This document shows positions 4,262-14,499 of a stretch of DNA of 32,000 bases, piece by piece (the first letter of the stretch is position 1; every line of letters begins with the position of its first letter). The translations under genes were made by a program, and so were the position numbers. Origin of the DNA: Candidatus Scalindua sp. (GTDB taxonomy: Bacteria; Planctomycetota; Brocadiia; Brocadiales; Scalinduaceae); the NCBI GenBank assembly GCA_031316235.1, contig JALDRA010000001.1, forward strand, positions 2,550,001 through 2,582,000. Direction: 5' to 3'. A model generated the notes under the pieces. That model searched no databases and was not told the origin of the DNA. It worked only from the letters and a program-made list of their open reading frames with translations.

Positions 4262-4415
4262 ATCCTGAGATGTCAGAAAAAGCATATTTAGGTCCTGAAC
4301 AAAAACCCTGTGGCTGAACCGAAATACCCGGACACAAGGTGCTGATTCCGTAACGGTAACTTCCTGAAGCACTTGGGGGGAGTTGTTACGGCAATGCAAG
4401 AGTGAGAAGTTCTGC

Positions 4416-6193: not shown

Positions 6194-6333
6194 TATACTC
6201 ATCTCATACTGGATTTCGGATAAAATCCGAGATAAAATTGAGCAAGTACAAGTCCTCGGCGCTTTTTGTCCGGGGATACCTTCACCAAGATCTGGTTTCC
6301 GGTAAAACCGAAAACCAGATCGGTTTTAGTATA
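6194..6333 (-). repeat. MITE-like structured repeat, copy A (reverse orientation)
   Basis: The reverse complement aligns end to end with copy C (10561-10693), with 8 substitutions and one 7-nt indel by manual alignment. The ends are TATACT...GAGTATA. It contains a long hairpin GATCTGGTTTTCGG/CCGGAAACCAGATC and the conserved core TCTCGGATTTTATCCGAAATCCAGTAT. Confidence 0.85.
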
Positions 6334-6385
6334 ATATTATAGTGTAAAATACTCTCAGAGCGTCCTGTTTTATTACTTTCTACAA

Positions 6386-7057
6386 TTATAGAGATGCTGA
6401 AAGAAATGTTCCTTCTTGATGAGTAAAGGTGATTGACTGGAAATGGGCCCCGATAGAGAAAAAAGACTTTCCGTTTTTAACTATTTTTTTCGAGCTTATC
6501 ACCTCTGCTATTGCGCGGAAAAGGGAGCTGTCAATTTTAATTATTTCCTGAGTATCTAACACTTTCCTGCAGAGAAAACGGATGCCTTTAGGTGAGAGAT
6601 CTACCATTGTAGCTTCGTATAGACGTTCTGAAGCGGATGTAATGAAGTGAAACTTTTCAAGTTTCTGTGTACGAATAAGAGAGCGTTTACAGCTCTCTCT
6701 TGTACTATTCAGGTTCTCAGTCTGAAACAGGTTATTGTGACAGACACAGTTTTTGTCAGAATGGTCCTCGCGTGTAAGCGGTCTTTTGCAAAAAGTACAG
6801 AAAGCTCTTACTCTTTCTTTTGAGTAAAAAGTTTTTTTATAATGCTGAAACAGTTTCCTGTCATATTCAGCACGTTTTTTTTCATCACTCAAAGTCTGGA
6901 AGGCTTCATTGAGAACTTTAGCATTCCAGTGATCACCACCAAGATCAGGATGTTGTTTTAATTTGTGCAGGAGTGTAAGATAGCTGGTACGAATGATTTC
7001 AAAAGGGGCATCAGGCTGTACCTGCAGAATTCGGTAATAGTTGCGTCGATTGTCCAT
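6386..7057 (-). CDS. J-domain (DnaJ N-terminal) protein with a central Cys4 cluster and a C-terminal PilZ-like domain
   Basis: The N-terminus NYYRILQV...LLHKLKQHPDLGG...AEYDRKL is a J domain with the HPD motif (aa 36-38). CTFC-x13-CVC lies at aa 87-106. The C-terminus carries RSLIR (RxxxR, aa 125-129) and DLSPKG (DxSxxG, aa 153-158) 23 residues later, followed by the beta-rich pattern EIIKID...AIAEVI typical of PilZ. Confidence 0.7.
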   Translation of the reverse strand: MDNRRNYYRILQVQPDAPFEIIRTSYLTLLHKLKQHPDLGGDHWNAKVLNEAFQTLSDEKKRAEYDRKLFQHYKKTFYSKERVRAFCTFCKRPLTREDHSDKNCVCHNNLFQTENLNSTRESCKRSLIRTQKLEKFHFITSASERLYEATMVDLSPKGIRFLCRKVLDTQEIIKIDSSLFRAIAEVISSKKIVKNGKSFFSIGAHFQSITFTHQEGTFLSASL

Positions 7058-7084
7058 AGGTGGGTGCAGGTGAATGATTGGTAA

Positions 7085-7224
7085 TATACTAAAACTGATC
7101 TGGTTTTAGATTTCTCTAAAAACCAGATCCTGGTTAAGGGTATCCCCGGACAGAAAACGCCGAGGACTTTCCCCGCTCCGTTTTTTCTCGGATTTTATCC
7201 GAAATCCAGTATAAGAGAAGTATA
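7085..7224 (+). repeat. MITE-like structured repeat, copy B (forward orientation, most diverged)
   Basis: It has the same TATACT...AGTATA ends and the same 27-nt core (7187-7213) as copies A and C. The hairpin stem GATCTGGTTTT/AAAACCAGATC is retained with a completely different loop (AGATTTCTCT). Confidence 0.8.
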
Positions 7225-7436
7225 CAAAGTATTACTATGTTAACAGTAAGATCTCTGGAAAGAGTGCCACGGTATTTTCTCCAGAGACCTGAGCTAAGGT
7301 ATTATCGACACACAATCAGAAAACTTTACCTTGGCATATCTTCTTAAAATATCATACATCACTATTCTCATGAGCCCTGTTTGTGTTTACCGACACTCAC
7401 TGTTTTTTTACTGTACTTACATTTTTTATTACAACA

Positions 7437-7739
7437 TCAAACCTCGTAATCTGCAACTCTCCGTTCACTGCAGACGGCAGACATGAATGGCAGGAGTAAT
7501 TTGTGTTCCGGGTGATTTTGGTAACATCTCAGCGCCTCCGGTGACTCAAATTCTGAGTAGAGAACCAGATCAGCCGAGGAATCACTCTTTGAATAATCAC
7601 ACCCGACTTCCAGGCGGCAAAGACCGGGAACTTTTCCGTTTAATGACTCAAGCCTCTCCTTCGCAATTTTTGCATTCTCTTCCTGATTATTCCCTTCAGC
7701 ATATTTATGTAATTTCCACATCACTATGTGTTTTATCAT
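7437..7739 (-). CDS. Dabb family stress-responsive alpha/beta-barrel protein
   Basis: 100 aa. The pattern MIKHIVMWKL...LEVGCDYS...DLVLYSEFESPEALRCYQNHPEH is the classical Dabb (PF07876) pattern. Confidence 0.75.
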   Translation of the reverse strand: MIKHIVMWKLHKYAEGNNQEENAKIAKERLESLNGKVPGLCRLEVGCDYSKSDSSADLVLYSEFESPEALRCYQNHPEHKLLLPFMSAVCSERRVADYEV

Positions 7740-7939
7740 GATTTACGGCCTTTCTCCACAATTCCCGCAATTAATCCTGCATTGAAGCATTTGATTAAAG
7801 AAGCGAACGAGCTTGTTTCTCTTTTTTACTGTTACACCAAAAACATCAAAAAAACCGCACTTCTCAAACCTGGAATCCTTTTCCGACTCGTTCGAGTCAG
7901 TAGTGTCTATTTTTTCACATTTATTACCGTTACCCTTTT

Positions 7940-9871
7940 TTATCCATTCCGTCCGGTTCTCCCTCTTCGTTGTGTTTTCAACCGTTGTGGTGTCCTCTTA
8001 TTGACTACTCCCTCCCGATTATGTAAGTCTCTTTTGGCAGAGCCCAGGAACCGTTTCAGCAAATCTGTTTTTTTTGCTTTCGTGAGCCTCTTTTTTATCC
8101 ATTCGTGATTCTCTTTCTTGTACCAGAAAAAGAAACGATGCTGATCTCTTCTCTCTTGTATTGATTTAGGAGTATAGTATCTTTTTAAGGTATAAGGATG
8201 ATAGCCGGAATAATAGATTACGGTAGCAACTGTCATTGGTGTGGGTGTAAAATCCTGGACGTGCTCAAGTTTAAAACCAAGTTCTTTCGTTTCAACTGCA
8301 AGGTTTGCCATATCTTCATCGCTGCAGCCAGGATGACTTGATATGAAGTAAGGTACAAGCTGCTGATTAAGGGAATAGTGTCTATCGATACGATCAAACA
8401 GTTTCTTAAATTCCTTAAAATGTTCAAATGATGGTTTTCTCATTAATTTGAGTGTATTTGCAGAGGTATGTTCCGGTGCAACTTTAAGTCTACCGGAAAC
8501 ATGGCGAGTCACAAGCTGTACCATATAATCATAAATGGAAGAATCGGCTTTGGTATTATAACTTTTTGTTATTAGATCATAACGAACTCCGCTTCCGACA
8601 AATGCTTTTTTCACTTTCGGATGATTGTCTACTTTTTTATAGATTTCGATTAATTGGGAATGGTTTGTGTCGAGATTTCCACATATTACCGGATAAATAC
8701 AGGAAGGAGCTACACATCTGTCGCAAACCTTTTGTTCCTTTCCCTTCATTTTATACATATTTGCAGACGGACCTCCGAGGTCAGAAATGTAGCCTTTAAA
8801 GTCTGGCATATTTACGATCTTGTCTACTTCATTCAGTATGGATTTTTGTGAGCGGCTTGCAATGAATTTACCTTGATGGGCTGAAATAGTACAAAAACTG
8901 CATCCTCCAAAACAGCCCCGATGCATGTTTATCGAAAATTTTATCATTTCATAGGCAGGAATACCACCGCGTTTTTTATATTTGGGATGAGGAAACCTTG
9001 TATAAGGCAAGTCAAAAGAGGCATCGATCTCCCTCTCTTTCATTGTTGGAAAAGGAGGATTAATTATCACGGATTTCCCCGAAATATCTTGTATAATCCG
9101 TTTTGCAGAGACCTTGTTTGATTCCTGCTCTATCTGTTTGAAGTTTGCGGCAAAGGATTTTTTGTCTGCTAAACAGGTCTCATGAGGCTGTATTGCAGTG
9201 TCCTGCCAGTGTTTGTTTTTCTGAATACCGCTGCTTTGGTCACGGATATAACCTGTCTGCCTGACCATTGTCAATTGATGGAAGGGTACCCCTTTTTTCA
9301 AAAGTTTGAGAATTTCTCTGATGGGCTGTTCTCCCATTCCGTACACCAATAAATCAGCCCCGCTTGTTTCAAGAATTGATGGCATCAATCTGTTTGACCA
9401 ATAATCGTAGTGCGTTACCCTCCTTAAAGAGGTCTCTATGCCTCCAATCACAACCGGAACATCAGGATAGAGAGATTTCAAAATCCTGGTGTAGGTGGTA
9501 ACAGCATAATCAGGACGATGACCAGCATTTCCTCCAGGAGTATATGCGTCTGTAGAACGAAGTCTCCTGTTCGCAGTGTAATGGCTCACCATGGAATCCA
9601 TGCAGCCAGAGGTTACTCCAAAGAAATATCTGGGCCTGCCAAATTTCTTAAAATCACGCAGATCATCTCTCCAATTTGGTTGCGGTACAATAGCAACCTT
9701 ATAGCCCTCACTTTCGATGATTCTGCCAATTACGGCAGCTCCAAATGAAGGATGGTCAACATATGCATCTCCTGATATGAGAATTACATCAAGTTCTTCC
9801 CAATGCCGCAATTCTGCCTCCTTTCTCGTAGTAGGAAGCCATTTGGTTATTTCCGGGTGTTTTTCTTTCAT
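7940..9871 (-). CDS. ygiQ: YgiQ-family (UPF0313) radical SAM protein
   Basis: The N-terminal LPTTRKE...LDVILISGDAYVDHPSFGAAVIGRIIESEGYKVAIVPQPNW is diagnostic of the YgiQ N-domain. The radical-SAM cluster motif is HRGCFGGCSFCTI (CxxxCxxC). It ends in a basic tail (KRTPQRLKTQRRGRTGRNG). Confidence 0.85.
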   Translation of the reverse strand: MKEKHPEITKWLPTTRKEAELRHWEELDVILISGDAYVDHPSFGAAVIGRIIESEGYKVAIVPQPNWRDDLRDFKKFGRPRYFFGVTSGCMDSMVSHYTANRRLRSTDAYTPGGNAGHRPDYAVTTYTRILKSLYPDVPVVIGGIETSLRRVTHYDYWSNRLMPSILETSGADLLVYGMGEQPIREILKLLKKGVPFHQLTMVRQTGYIRDQSSGIQKNKHWQDTAIQPHETCLADKKSFAANFKQIEQESNKVSAKRIIQDISGKSVIINPPFPTMKEREIDASFDLPYTRFPHPKYKKRGGIPAYEMIKFSINMHRGCFGGCSFCTISAHQGKFIASRSQKSILNEVDKIVNMPDFKGYISDLGGPSANMYKMKGKEQKVCDRCVAPSCIYPVICGNLDTNHSQLIEIYKKVDNHPKVKKAFVGSGVRYDLITKSYNTKADSSIYDYMVQLVTRHVSGRLKVAPEHTSANTLKLMRKPSFEHFKEFKKLFDRIDRHYSLNQQLVPYFISSHPGCSDEDMANLAVETKELGFKLEHVQDFTPTPMTVATVIYYSGYHPYTLKRYYTPKSIQERRDQHRFFFWYKKENHEWIKKRLTKAKKTDLLKRFLGSAKRDLHNREGVVNKRTPQRLKTQRRGRTGRNG

Positions 9872-10380
9872 CTCTTTTTCGATCCTGTCATCCTCCCTGT
9901 TGATTCACTGACAGTTTTGCTTCTTCCCTTCATATATTTCTGATAACGCTCTATGCCCACACACTCACTTCCAACGGGGCACTTCTCTATACAGCTTTCA
10001 GCTAATTCACGCTGAATCGTCTCTCCACAACTTTCACAGGAATACTCATTTTCGAAACCGGCTACTGATGCAGTACCCAACTTTCTGCAGTGTGGACACG
10101 TTACATCTATGATCTCCACCCTCTTTATCCTTTCAGCACCAGGACATTGAAAAACAGCGGGTTTTTTAAAGCCCGCTGTTGAAGCAGGAGAAACCTTTTT
10201 TATTTTTGCAATAGTTTGGGTGGCTAAGATACGAAGAGGCATTCGTTTCTCTTTTCTTAAGAATTCCTGCAGTGCTTTCATCGCTTCATGACTGCCTTTT
10301 CCGACCCTGCCAATCTCTCCGAGAGCCTCCACCACCATCTCTGAGTTCTCGTGATTCAATTTCTCCACTAGTGCTTTCAT
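9868..10380 (-). CDS. Small HEAT-like repeat / zinc-ribbon protein (hypothetical)
   Basis: 170 aa. The N-terminus EMVVEALGEIGRVG...AMKALQEFL...LRILATQTIAKI resembles PBS-lyase/HEAT-like repeats. CPHC-x16-CESC forms a zinc-ribbon signature, followed by CIEKCPVGSEC. Its TGA overlaps the ygiQ ATG (ATGA at 9868-9871). Confidence 0.5.
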   Translation of the reverse strand: MKALVEKLNHENSEMVVEALGEIGRVGKGSHEAMKALQEFLRKEKRMPLRILATQTIAKIKKVSPASTAGFKKPAVFQCPGAERIKRVEIIDVTCPHCRKLGTASVAGFENEYSCESCGETIQRELAESCIEKCPVGSECVGIERYQKYMKGRSKTVSESTGRMTGSKKR

Positions 10381-10560
10381 ATTCGTTACAGTCTAATTAC
10401 CTTCCGCTGTGCCATCACCGCCAAAAACCTGCCGCTCTCCCCGGAAGAATCCGTTTGAACGAAACAAGGTTCATTTGAACCTGAAGAGATTGAAAGGTTG
10501 CTATCCTTAGAGGGGTTTTACTTCATCGGGCATGTACTTAAAACGGGCTGTTGAATGTAA

Positions 10561-10693
10561 TATACTAAAACCGATTTGGTTTTACCGGAAACCAAGTCCT
10601 GGTGAAGGTATTCCCGGACAAAAAGCACCGAGGACTTGTACTCGTTCAATTTTATCTCGGATTTTATCCGAAATCCAGTATGAGATGAGTATA
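10561..10693 (+). repeat. MITE-like structured repeat, copy C (forward orientation)
   Basis: Near-identical to the reverse complement of copy A. The hairpin is GATTTGGTTT/AAACCAAGTC with a compensated stem change. It lies in the 366-bp gap between the batE-like stop and the HEAT-protein start. Confidence 0.85.
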
Positions 10694-13620: not shown

Positions 13621-14499
13621 TTACCAATCCTTAAGGATGCCGTACGTTGCTGATTTATCTTCCTTTTCCGGTAAATCACGTGCACTCTTTTCTGATTGTT
13701 TCATAGCGTCCAGTATTCTTTCTGCTTCTTCCTTAGACATTTCTCTTTTTTCATGAGGCTGTGGAGCTGGAGGTTTATCTGTCTCGTTTTCTTGTGAAGG
13801 TTTTTGTCCGTTTTTTTGTTCTTCCTCTTTATTCTCATCCTTTTCCTGTTGATTTTGATCCTGTTCCTGCTGTTCCTGTTTCTTTTCCTGCGGCTTTTGA
13901 TCCTGCTCCTGCTTCTCCTGTTCCTGGTCTTCTCCCTTCTCTTCCTGGTTCTCCTCTTTGTCCTGCTCCTCTTTTTCCTTGTCTTTCTCTTCTTGTTCCT
14001 GTCTCTCCTTCTGTTCTTTCTGCATCTCTTCTATCTTCTTTTCTACAAATTCGTAATTAAACTTTGCGTCTTCTCTTAATGCATCAAGCTCTTCGTCATG
14101 AATATTTTGATGCTCTCCTGAAAGTCCAATTGCCTGTTTATAGAAATCGAGAGATTCTTTTAATTTTCCCTGCTTATAGAGGGTGTTACCCATATTGTAA
14201 TTCCCTTTTGCCTTCAGGAGTATGTCATCGCTCTTTATGGCATCTTGATAAGATTTTTCAGCTTCTGGGAATTTACCTTTTTTATAATGGGTATTTGCGA
14301 TGTTAAACTTTAACTGATCTGATTCCGGTACAAAGGATTGTGCATCAGTAAACCTGCTTGCCGCTTCATCAAATTTGTTTTCATTGTAAAGAATGATTCC
14401 TTCTTCATTGTGTTCTGCTGCAGGATCAATCCAGCCTAATGATAGTAAGCAGATGATGAAAACTGTAAAGGCTTTCAGCTTTGTATTAAACATTTCCAT
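13621..14499 (-). CDS. batC: BatC-like TPR protein with a long E/Q/K-rich low-complexity region
   Basis: It has a signal peptide, TPR motifs (NIANTHYKKGKFPEAEKSYQDAI; YNMGNTLYKQGKLKESLDFYKQAI), and then about 80 aa of EQK-rich sequence. It sits between batB and batD. Confidence 0.65.
   Translation of the reverse strand: MEMFNTKLKAFTVFIICLLSLGWIDPAAEHNEEGIILYNENKFDEAASRFTDAQSFVPESDQLKFNIANTHYKKGKFPEAEKSYQDAIKSDDILLKAKGNYNMGNTLYKQGKLKESLDFYKQAIGLSGEHQNIHDEELDALREDAKFNYEFVEKKIEEMQKEQKERQEQEEKDKEKEEQDKEENQEEKGEDQEQEKQEQDQKPQEKKQEQQEQDQNQQEKDENKEEEQKNGQKPSQENETDKPPAPQPHEKREMSKEEAERILDAMKQSEKSARDLPEKEDKSATYGILKDW
13795..14037 (-). repeat. Low-complexity coding tract (poly E/Q/K/D) inside batC
   Basis: The plus strand is a pyrimidine-rich run of CTC/CTT/CTG/TTC units that encodes ...EEMQKEQKERQEQEEKDKEKEEQDKEENQEEKGEDQEQEKQEQDQKPQEKKQEQQEQDQNQQEKDENKEEEQK... 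on the minus strand. Confidence 0.8.

Follow-up and report, generated by a model that had tools for sequence, protein, structure and literature searches.

Several families of short repeats in bacterial genomes, among them Correia/NEMIS, RUP and ERIC, are miniature inverted-repeat transposable elements (MITEs), which are less than 200 bp long, have terminal inverted repeats, 5'-TA-3' termini and A+T-rich ends, duplicate their target, and give transcripts predicted to fold into long stem-loops (PMC2229807). We analysed a stretch of 32,000 nucleotides from Candidatus Scalindua sp. (GenBank assembly GCA_031316235.1, contig JALDRA010000001.1, positions 2,550,001 to 2,582,000; hereafter the window), in which a first inspection of the letters, here called the original prediction, had pointed to three related copies of a repeat (A, B and C) with an invariant 27-nt block. 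With a probability of roughly 0.88, we believe that the three segments are copies of a Scalindua-specific MITE family (Scalinduaceae, anammox Planctomycetota) that was moved in trans. This assignment is made because of the terminal inverted repeats, the TA duplication on insertion and the presence/absence polymorphism of the element, and it is supported by the coincidence of these properties with those listed for bacterial MITEs (PMC2229807). The element is small (111-200 nt, against an upper limit of about 300 bp for bacterial MITEs) and contains no open reading frame (ORF), as is usual for a MITE, and both of its subtypes have terminal inverted repeats.

The closest analogue of the Scalindua element is Correia/NEMIS of Neisseria, which likewise is non-coding, about 100-160 nt long and mostly intergenic, has TATA... 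termini, a TA duplication and terminal repeats of about 24-26 nt, occurs in length variants through an optional internal segment, and is predicted to form long stem-loops (PMC2229807). The two differ in that they have no sequence similarity, that Scalindua belongs to the Planctomycetota, and that the subtype found in the window has weaker terminal repeats and carries within it an extra inverted copy of its left end, which forms a central hairpin (H1). RUP of Streptococcus pneumoniae and other IS630-derived MITEs share with it the insertion at TA, the TA termini, the small size and the intergenic location, and RUP also inserts into other repeats and insertion sequence (IS) elements, as the Scalindua MITE does (PMC2229807). 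RUP has a known partner with matching ends, IS630-Spn1, whereas no partner was found for the Scalindua element in the DNA described below. BOX and ERIC are similarly modular, with internal blocks present or absent between conserved ends, and are highly base-paired, but BOX is without the clear terminal repeats and TA duplication that the Scalindua element has. Nor is there any sequence relationship to RUP or ERIC.

The element inserts at TA and duplicates these 2 bp. By modelling the unoccupied site as a single TA between the two flanks of the element, and searching this model against all fetched loci (labelled L001 and so on, about 1 Mb of Scalindua DNA), we found six independent insertions with matching empty sites that align without gaps across the junction and contain a single TA, the filled sites reading TA-[TAC...GTA]-TA. 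In one of these, the element at L039:6843-7025 interrupts a member of another repeat of about 150 nt, whose intact members in L065 and L010 are 100% identical across the junction. The empty sequence there is ...GGCGCGTAA-TA-ATTTCGTAACC... (...GCGTAA-TA-ATTTCG...) and the filled sequence is ...GTAA-TA(TACTCATCGC...GCGATGAGTA)TA-ATTTCG..., with the element ends also given as TACTCATC...GATGAGTA; the other five pairs are listed in Table 1. When the outer dinucleotide was left unconstrained, TA was present at both ends in 126 of 136 complete elements, and adjoining elements have one TA in common (L009, L032).

The family is numerous in Scalindua. A search with the degenerate right-end pattern CCGAAANCCANTNNGNGATGNGTATA returned at least 120 stretches, nearly all in the Scalindua metagenome-assembled genomes (MAGs) SCAELEC01, RBC_AMX3, CBDCUS01 and Maj_2_bin.27, leaving three matches on short or odd contigs binned elsewhere. 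These are L043 (Oligoflexia MAG, 1.4 kb), L096 (Hyphomicrobiales MAG, with two complete elements within its 616 nt) and L036 (Bacteroidetes MAG); family copies on very short contigs assigned to unrelated phyla are most likely mis-binned Scalindua fragments, and the match in L036 may be due to chance. From the fetched loci we recovered 85 window-type copies (111-246 nt) and, for a sister type of about 182 nt, at least 37. Partial samples of three Scalindua MAGs contained at least 56, 55 and 18 complete copies, and the window contains 3.

The sister type was found at the syntenic loci of two related Scalindua genomes, where the elements measure 182-212 nt and combine the shared termini, TATAC(C/T)CAT...GATG(A/G)GTATA, with a different interior (consensus TATACCCATCACGAATTGGTTTTCGG...CCGAAAACCATTTCGTGATGGGTATA). 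Copy A of the window is matched over its whole length by the sister-type profile (E=3e-15), and both types are one family. They are alike in termini, TA duplication and host genomes; they differ in the interior and in the terminal repeats, which are longer and near-perfect in the sister type, one element having a perfect inverted repeat of 23 nt. The sister type was not found in the window. A 21-mer of the 27-nt core had 0 exact matches in genome and metagenome contig collections, which lack the source genome; this is explained by that absence and by the core homologue of other species, which has AAAACCATTAT where the window species has AAATCCAGTAT. BLAST with both subfamilies gave no match in a plasmid collection, and literature searches brought up no account of MITEs from Scalindua or any other anammox bacterium.

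In the orientation of copy C, the window-type element consists of TA, the left end TACTAAAACCGATTTGGTTTTCGG, H1, a linker (TTGGTGAAGGTA or TTGGTTGCAGTTA), an optional module M, the right-hand hairpin TACTCGCTCAATTTTATCTCGGATTTTATCCGAAAACCATTATGAGATGAGTA (H3) and TA. In H1, the left end is followed by the short loop TTTTA and then by CCGGAAACCAAATC, which repeats the inner left end in inverted orientation, so that the inner part of the left terminal repeat of copy C doubles as the left arm of H1, and its tip is either of type a (CGG-TTTTA-CCG, window copies A and C) or of type b (AGA-TTT(T)C-TCT, window copy B). Module M (TCCCCGG-loop-CCGAGGACTT, with a loop of 3-14 nt) is present in all three window copies, is missing from copies of 111-113 nt, and was also found inside a copy of the sister subfamily (L007:8868-8895). 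When reverse-complemented, the right end (TATACTCATCTCATAATGGTTTTCGG) is similar to the left end (TATACTAAAACCGATTTGGTTTTCGG), and left ends and reverse-complemented right ends have TATAC..TGG.TTTCGG in common; the 27-nt core is therefore the loop of the right-hand hairpin together with the inner part of the right terminal repeat. The unusual conservation ascribed to this block holds across the family: in 56 copies from other genomes, conservation is highest in the columns of the core region and of the left end, and the core homologue is near-invariant apart from the species-specific differences given above. In the window lineage, T>C in the left end goes together with its partner A>G in H1 and with a corresponding substitution in the right end, and each of the three copies of the end motif has CTGG/CCAG, with C at the matching position of the left end, the inverted copy in H1 and the right end, where other genomes have T or A. 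These coordinated changes could reflect co-evolution with a lineage-specific transposase or a function at the RNA level.

Within the window, the 27-mer TCTCGGATTTTATCCGAAATCCAGTAT occurs exactly three times (0 expected from 100 shuffles), and nhmmer with the family profiles found three full copies of 133-140 nt and no further ones in the 32 kb. This agrees with the three related copies of the original prediction, which had also placed the ends of copy C exactly (TATAC...GTATA) and had correctly counted 8 substitutions and one 7-nt gap between copies C and A. All three copies read TA-TACT...AGTA-TA, and the right end of copy B is degenerate (AAGAGAAGTATA vs consensus GAGATGAGTATA). The 7-nt gap in copy C is a slippage-type deletion, with loss of one unit of the direct repeat GGTTTTCGGTTTT in the left hairpin and a shortened stem. 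Hairpins had been proposed for all three copies, and although the arms as quoted are correct, the central hairpin is absent from the minimum-energy DNA fold of copy C. The loop of copy B, AGATTTCTCT, which had been called unrelated, is in fact self-complementary (AGA-TTTC-TCT), which extends the stem to about 14 bp and leaves a loop of 4 nt, and is the recurrent type-b tip that is present in other genomes too. A difference between C-G and T-A pairs in H1 had been read as a change towards T-A in copy C; the difference is genuine, but compared with the family consensus (arms GATTTGG/CCAAATC) copy C has the ancestral T-A pair together with one A>G change giving a T-G pair, and it is the C-G pair of copies A and B that is derived.

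Table 1. Coordinates of the element copies and their parts, of sister-type elements, and of filled and empty insertion sites (window positions, unless a locus label is given)
Feature	Position	Strand	Basis or remark
MITE copy A, 140 nt, type-a hairpin tip	6194..6333	-	nhmmer E=1e-44, alignments
Outer TA of copy A, presumed target-site duplication	6194-6195 and 6332-6333		nhmmer-delimited ends
MITE copy B, 140 nt, type-b hairpin tip	7085..7224	+	nhmmer E=6e-36, alignment
MITE copy C, 133 nt	10561..10693	+	nhmmer E=3e-38, alignment
Left terminal inverted repeat of C, TA + TACTAAAACCGATTTGGTTT	10561..10582	+	family left/right-end comparison
Central hairpin H1 of C, GATTTGGTTT / AAACCAAGTC, loop TACCGG	10573..10598	+	
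H1 equivalent in A	6289-6321		
H1 equivalent in B	7097-7129		
Optional module M of C, TTCCCGG-loop-CCGAGGACTT, short hairpin with variable loop	10611..10637	+	
Module M equivalent in A	6250-6276		
Module M equivalent in B	7143-7169		
27-nt core of A	6206-6232	-	exact 27-mer
27-nt core of B	7186-7212	+	exact 27-mer
27-nt core of C, loop and right arm of right-hand hairpin, into right terminal repeat	10655..10681	+	exact 27-mer
Right terminal inverted repeat of C, CCGAAATCCAGTATGAGATGAGTA + TA	10668..10693	+	right-end pattern
Sister-type element	L003:16054-16235		
Sister-type element	L003:19574-19756		
Sister-type element	L007:2191-2372		
Sister-type element	L007:8794-9005		
Filled site, window-type copy	L070:5564-5704		empty in L082, L085, L090
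Filled site	L029		empty in L032
Filled site	L059 (SCAELEC01)		empty in L034 (RBC_AMX3)
Filled site	L080		empty in L091, L042
Filled site	L110		empty in L081

The hairpins and their covariation had been taken as a sign of selection on structure, and the segments could accordingly be members of a structured non-coding RNA family, either small RNA genes or cis-acting leaders, with hairpins selected for an RNA fold and a core that is single-stranded or switches between pairings. The palindromes are real and conserved: with three helices written out in the 56-copy alignment (42 pairs, 2085 cells), 86.7% of cells are paired, as against 36-53% with slid partners, and H1 reaches 94.9%. It also speaks for an RNA that all six folds are more stable than those of shuffled sequences (z of -3.1 to -3.9), that copies A and B carry C-G where the family has T-A, that the two core substitutions of the window lineage turn mismatches into pairs (columns 107-129 and 112-125), and that all three window copies lie upstream of genes. 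Double-sided changes, on the other hand, were seen at 5 of the 42 pairs, compared with 3.0 +/- 1.1 in 500 shuffles, 51 of which reach 5, and the covariation score of 0.049 vs 0.045 (11/500) lies within the range that related sequences attain without structure, according to the tool. Cells that break the pairing number in the hundreds and far exceed the double-sided ones (7 of 2085), so the covariation argument of the original prediction does not carry over to the larger alignment. The reverse strand folds as stably as the forward strand; of the wobble-compatible mismatches, those of H1 and H3 point to the forward strand and those of module M to the reverse strand, the two mismatches of M becoming G-U pairs on the reverse strand only, and since these strands disagree, no single transcript orientation is indicated. 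Nothing in Rfam overlaps the copies at gathering thresholds or at E<=10, and only tRNAs reach the gathering score in the window, which confirms the earlier view that the element falls outside any known RNA family. Together with the unbiased orientation and chance-level promoter-like and terminator-like sites described below, and with TA-duplicating insertion, including into other repeats, which shows that the element spreads as DNA, these results make an RNA family very improbable. Some structural constraint on the hairpins may nonetheless exist. The C-G pair of copies A and B is a true compensatory change, and could have arisen by ordinary selection, by templated quasi-palindrome correction or by co-evolution of repeated transposase-binding motifs. 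The RNA candidates we rejected are a riboswitch or cis-regulatory leader, given the two orientations in the window and the lack of a family-wide orientation bias, and a tracrRNA, omega-RNA or bridge RNA, given the TA duplications and the lack of an associated nuclease or recombinase gene in the window. Of the functions offered earlier, a palindromic protein site comes nearest to the outcome, and the argument from covariation for selection on RNA or DNA structure does not hold. The alternative that the original prediction had set against its own view, an IS-end or REP-type (repetitive extragenic palindromic) repeat that explains the palindromes, is in substance what we found, in the form of terminal repeats, TA duplication and presence/absence polymorphism.

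All 82 copies examined are intergenic, and their orientation relative to neighbouring genes is unbiased, the downstream gene being co-oriented in 37 cases and opposed in 26 (20, 17, 8 and 18 for the four arrangements). The three window copies lie between genes, in both orientations and upstream of minus-strand genes (for an ABC-class ATPase, a DnaJ-domain protein and a 156-aa protein), much as had been described, and each is within 30-60 nt of a gene start. Elements such as Correia, ERIC and RUP are known to serve as terminators, mRNA-stabilising or RNase III-target hairpins, outward promoters and protein-binding sites. We think it unlikely that some copies of the Scalindua MITE have been co-opted by the host in one of these ways. 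The short distance of the window copies from gene starts would fit such a role, as would the TATACT hexamers created by the element ends, the reverse-strand arrangement of H1 followed by GGTTTTAG, with copy C flagged as terminator-like, and a related copy in the same intergenic region upstream of the DnaJ-domain gene in L007 (8794-9005), a genome with about 83% protein identity. Co-option has also been documented for other bacterial MITEs (PMC2229807). Yet sites resembling promoters or terminators are no more frequent around the window copies than expected by chance, the family shows no orientation bias, and the copy in L007 is probably an independent insertion, as it belongs to a different subtype and lies about 83 nt from the start codon instead of 28 nt. 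Mobilisation as single-stranded DNA, in the manner of REP elements and bacterial interspersed mosaic elements (BIMEs) or of palindrome-associated transposable elements derived from IS200/IS605, with a Y1 transposase (RAYT or TnpA) recognising the hairpins, has in its favour that the element is made up of several imperfect palindromes, and that small modules nested in its loops after TTTTA (G1 and G2, see below) show no visible duplication and so resemble Y1-type insertions. To our knowledge, elements moved by Y1 transposases make no target duplication. The terminal inverted repeats and the 2-bp TA duplication contradict this origin for the whole element, which also has no conserved REP-type GTAG head and no RAYT or TnpA gene nearby in the window, and we regard it as highly implausible.

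For the MITE reading, we propose the following mechanism. Because it encodes nothing, the element would be moved in trans by a transposase that recognises its ends of about 25 bp and inserts it at TA with duplication of the TA, so that each copy would come to read TA-TAC...GTA-TA. Strict TA duplication is a hallmark of the IS630/Tc1-mariner superfamily, and points to a DDE transposase of this kind; the IS427 subgroup of IS5, which makes 2-4-bp duplications, would be a less likely source. The conserved ends are probably the binding sites of this enzyme, and the 27-nt core and the stems may thus be conserved as terminal and sub-terminal recognition sequences, in addition to the recent common ancestry of the copies, in which case selection for an RNA fold would be unnecessary to account for them. 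An IS630-family transposase by itself is reported to bind terminal repeats and duplicate TA in vitro (PMC2170065).

Several observations weigh against the MITE reading or parts of it. The two terminal repeats of the window subtype match imperfectly, sharing TATACT and about 18 of 26 positions, the G-T pairs of H1 and H3 would be G-U in a forward-strand RNA, and the substitutions of the window lineage improve pairing. For the three window copies themselves, no empty site was demonstrable, because the nearest genomes are too diverged in intergenic DNA, that of the syntenic L003 and L007 being unalignable. The fetched Scalindua DNA, about 1 Mb, yielded neither an autonomous element nor a transposase flanked by matching ends, and the link to IS630 is for this reason drawn from the TA duplication by itself. 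The fetched loci contain 436 ORFs, and the search covered inward-facing ends 0.45-3.5 kb apart, repeated ORFs, Pfam for 29 ORFs beside orphan ends and a DDE-motif regular expression. The inward-facing ends more than 450 nt apart were rejected as a parent transposon, as they proved to be copies split by an IS110-family element or a group II intron, or independent copies flanking ordinary genes. There were no multi-copy ORFs in the fetched 1 Mb, the 29 ORFs beside orphan ends matched only housekeeping families and an IS110 transposase in Pfam, and the Tc1/IS630 DDE-motif expression, a weak test, had no match in the fetched loci. The family may be an orphan in the way of Correia elements, for which we know of no identified transposase in Neisseria.

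Smaller palindromes are nested within the MITE. One GC-rich palindrome of about 26-34 nt, G1 (CCTGTCTGCGTGC-loop-GCACAGGCAGG), sits in the loop of the right-hand hairpin in L017, L020, L021, L026, L047 and L050, and in the H1 loop in L034, L041, L078 and L082. It occurs 20 times inside MITEs and 12 times outside, with stand-alone copies at about L017:1806 and L003:21284, and has the look of a REP-like mini-element in its own right. Another module rich in GC, G2 (CCGTCCGAACGGCTGACAGGCCGGGCGGGC and longer variants of it), occupies the same point of the H1 loop (in L061, L080, L112, L037, L083, L054, L019 and others), bringing copies to 142-223 nt, and within hairpin loops both modules always lie immediately 3' of TTTTA. 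These nested palindromes could belong to a REP-like single-strand transposition system in anammox bacteria or be a new kind of mini-element. That the MITE is more than selfish DNA, either since its loops act as landing pads for M, G1 and G2 (27-34 nt) or since the coordinated changes of the window lineage are meaningful, seems doubtful to us.

MITE copies appear to act as landing sites for other mobile elements as well: the copy at L089:4439-6277 is split by an IS110-family element with a frameshifted transposase (283 + 121 aa), and at L083:428-2506 a group II intron with a gene for a 415-aa reverse transcriptase/maturase interrupts another copy. The repeat of about 150 nt that is interrupted in L039, and is thus itself a MITE target, forms a second family with ends TAGTGTYTGAACGAAAAC...GTTTTCGTTCAAACACTA (for example L065:5167-5315), with about 59 BLAST matches in the fetched loci and many copies in Scalindua SCAELEC01. 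A degenerate fragment of it, about 34 nt at 82% identity, is found at about 4283-4320 of the window, between the DUF4340 and ABC-ATPase genes. At a site syntenic to that of copy A, L007:9930-9965 contains a perfect 30-nt hairpin (ATATACGAAGAG-GGATAT-CTCTTCGTATAT) with MITE-like termini (TATAC...GTATA), which could be a footprint, a mini-derivative or a coincidence.

The genes flanking the window copies are ordinary ones, for an ABC-class ATPase (with best homologues in Candidatus Scalindua, at 83-86% identity), a DnaJ-domain protein, a Dabb protein, a YgiQ-type radical SAM protein, a TPR protein and BatD, and a tRNA cluster and a tuf-to-rpoB region lie further along. Copies A and B are inverted with their right ends outward and bracket the DnaJ-domain gene (6386-7057) within 6194-7224. 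We rejected a composite transposon made of the two, as the same locus in L007 has a different element arrangement, and joint mobilisation of A and B with this gene is unlikely. Elsewhere in the window, CT-rich periodic repeats at 13802-14022 (12 overlapping copies of a 47-nt unit, with 9-21 nt spacing) lie within an ORF at 13621-14499 on the minus strand, whose 292-aa protein has a low-complexity stretch here, probably rich in Glu, Gln and Lys.

For annotation, MITE is the label to give these copies, in place of candidate small RNA or riboswitch. The copies are also the reason for the breaks in short-read Scalindua assemblies at these points: of two Logan contigs from the source organism, L001 is 100% identical to window positions 7187-10607, from the core of B into C, and L002, also 100% identical to the window, terminates within copy A, since assemblers break at repeats. 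Exact protein look-ups had no record for the 170-aa ORF or for EF-Tu, and for the Dabb protein and the ABC-ATPase they returned only short Logan contigs that stop within the repeats. The biological value is modest. With its high copy number, modular build and differences in occupancy from one genome to another, the family could be useful as a strain marker and for tracing transposase activity, and it matters for an understanding of genome plasticity. Scalindua is an uncultured lineage important for the marine nitrogen cycle, and the nested mini-palindromes, together with the insertions of an IS110 element and a group II intron, suggest a layered traffic of mobile elements in its genomes.

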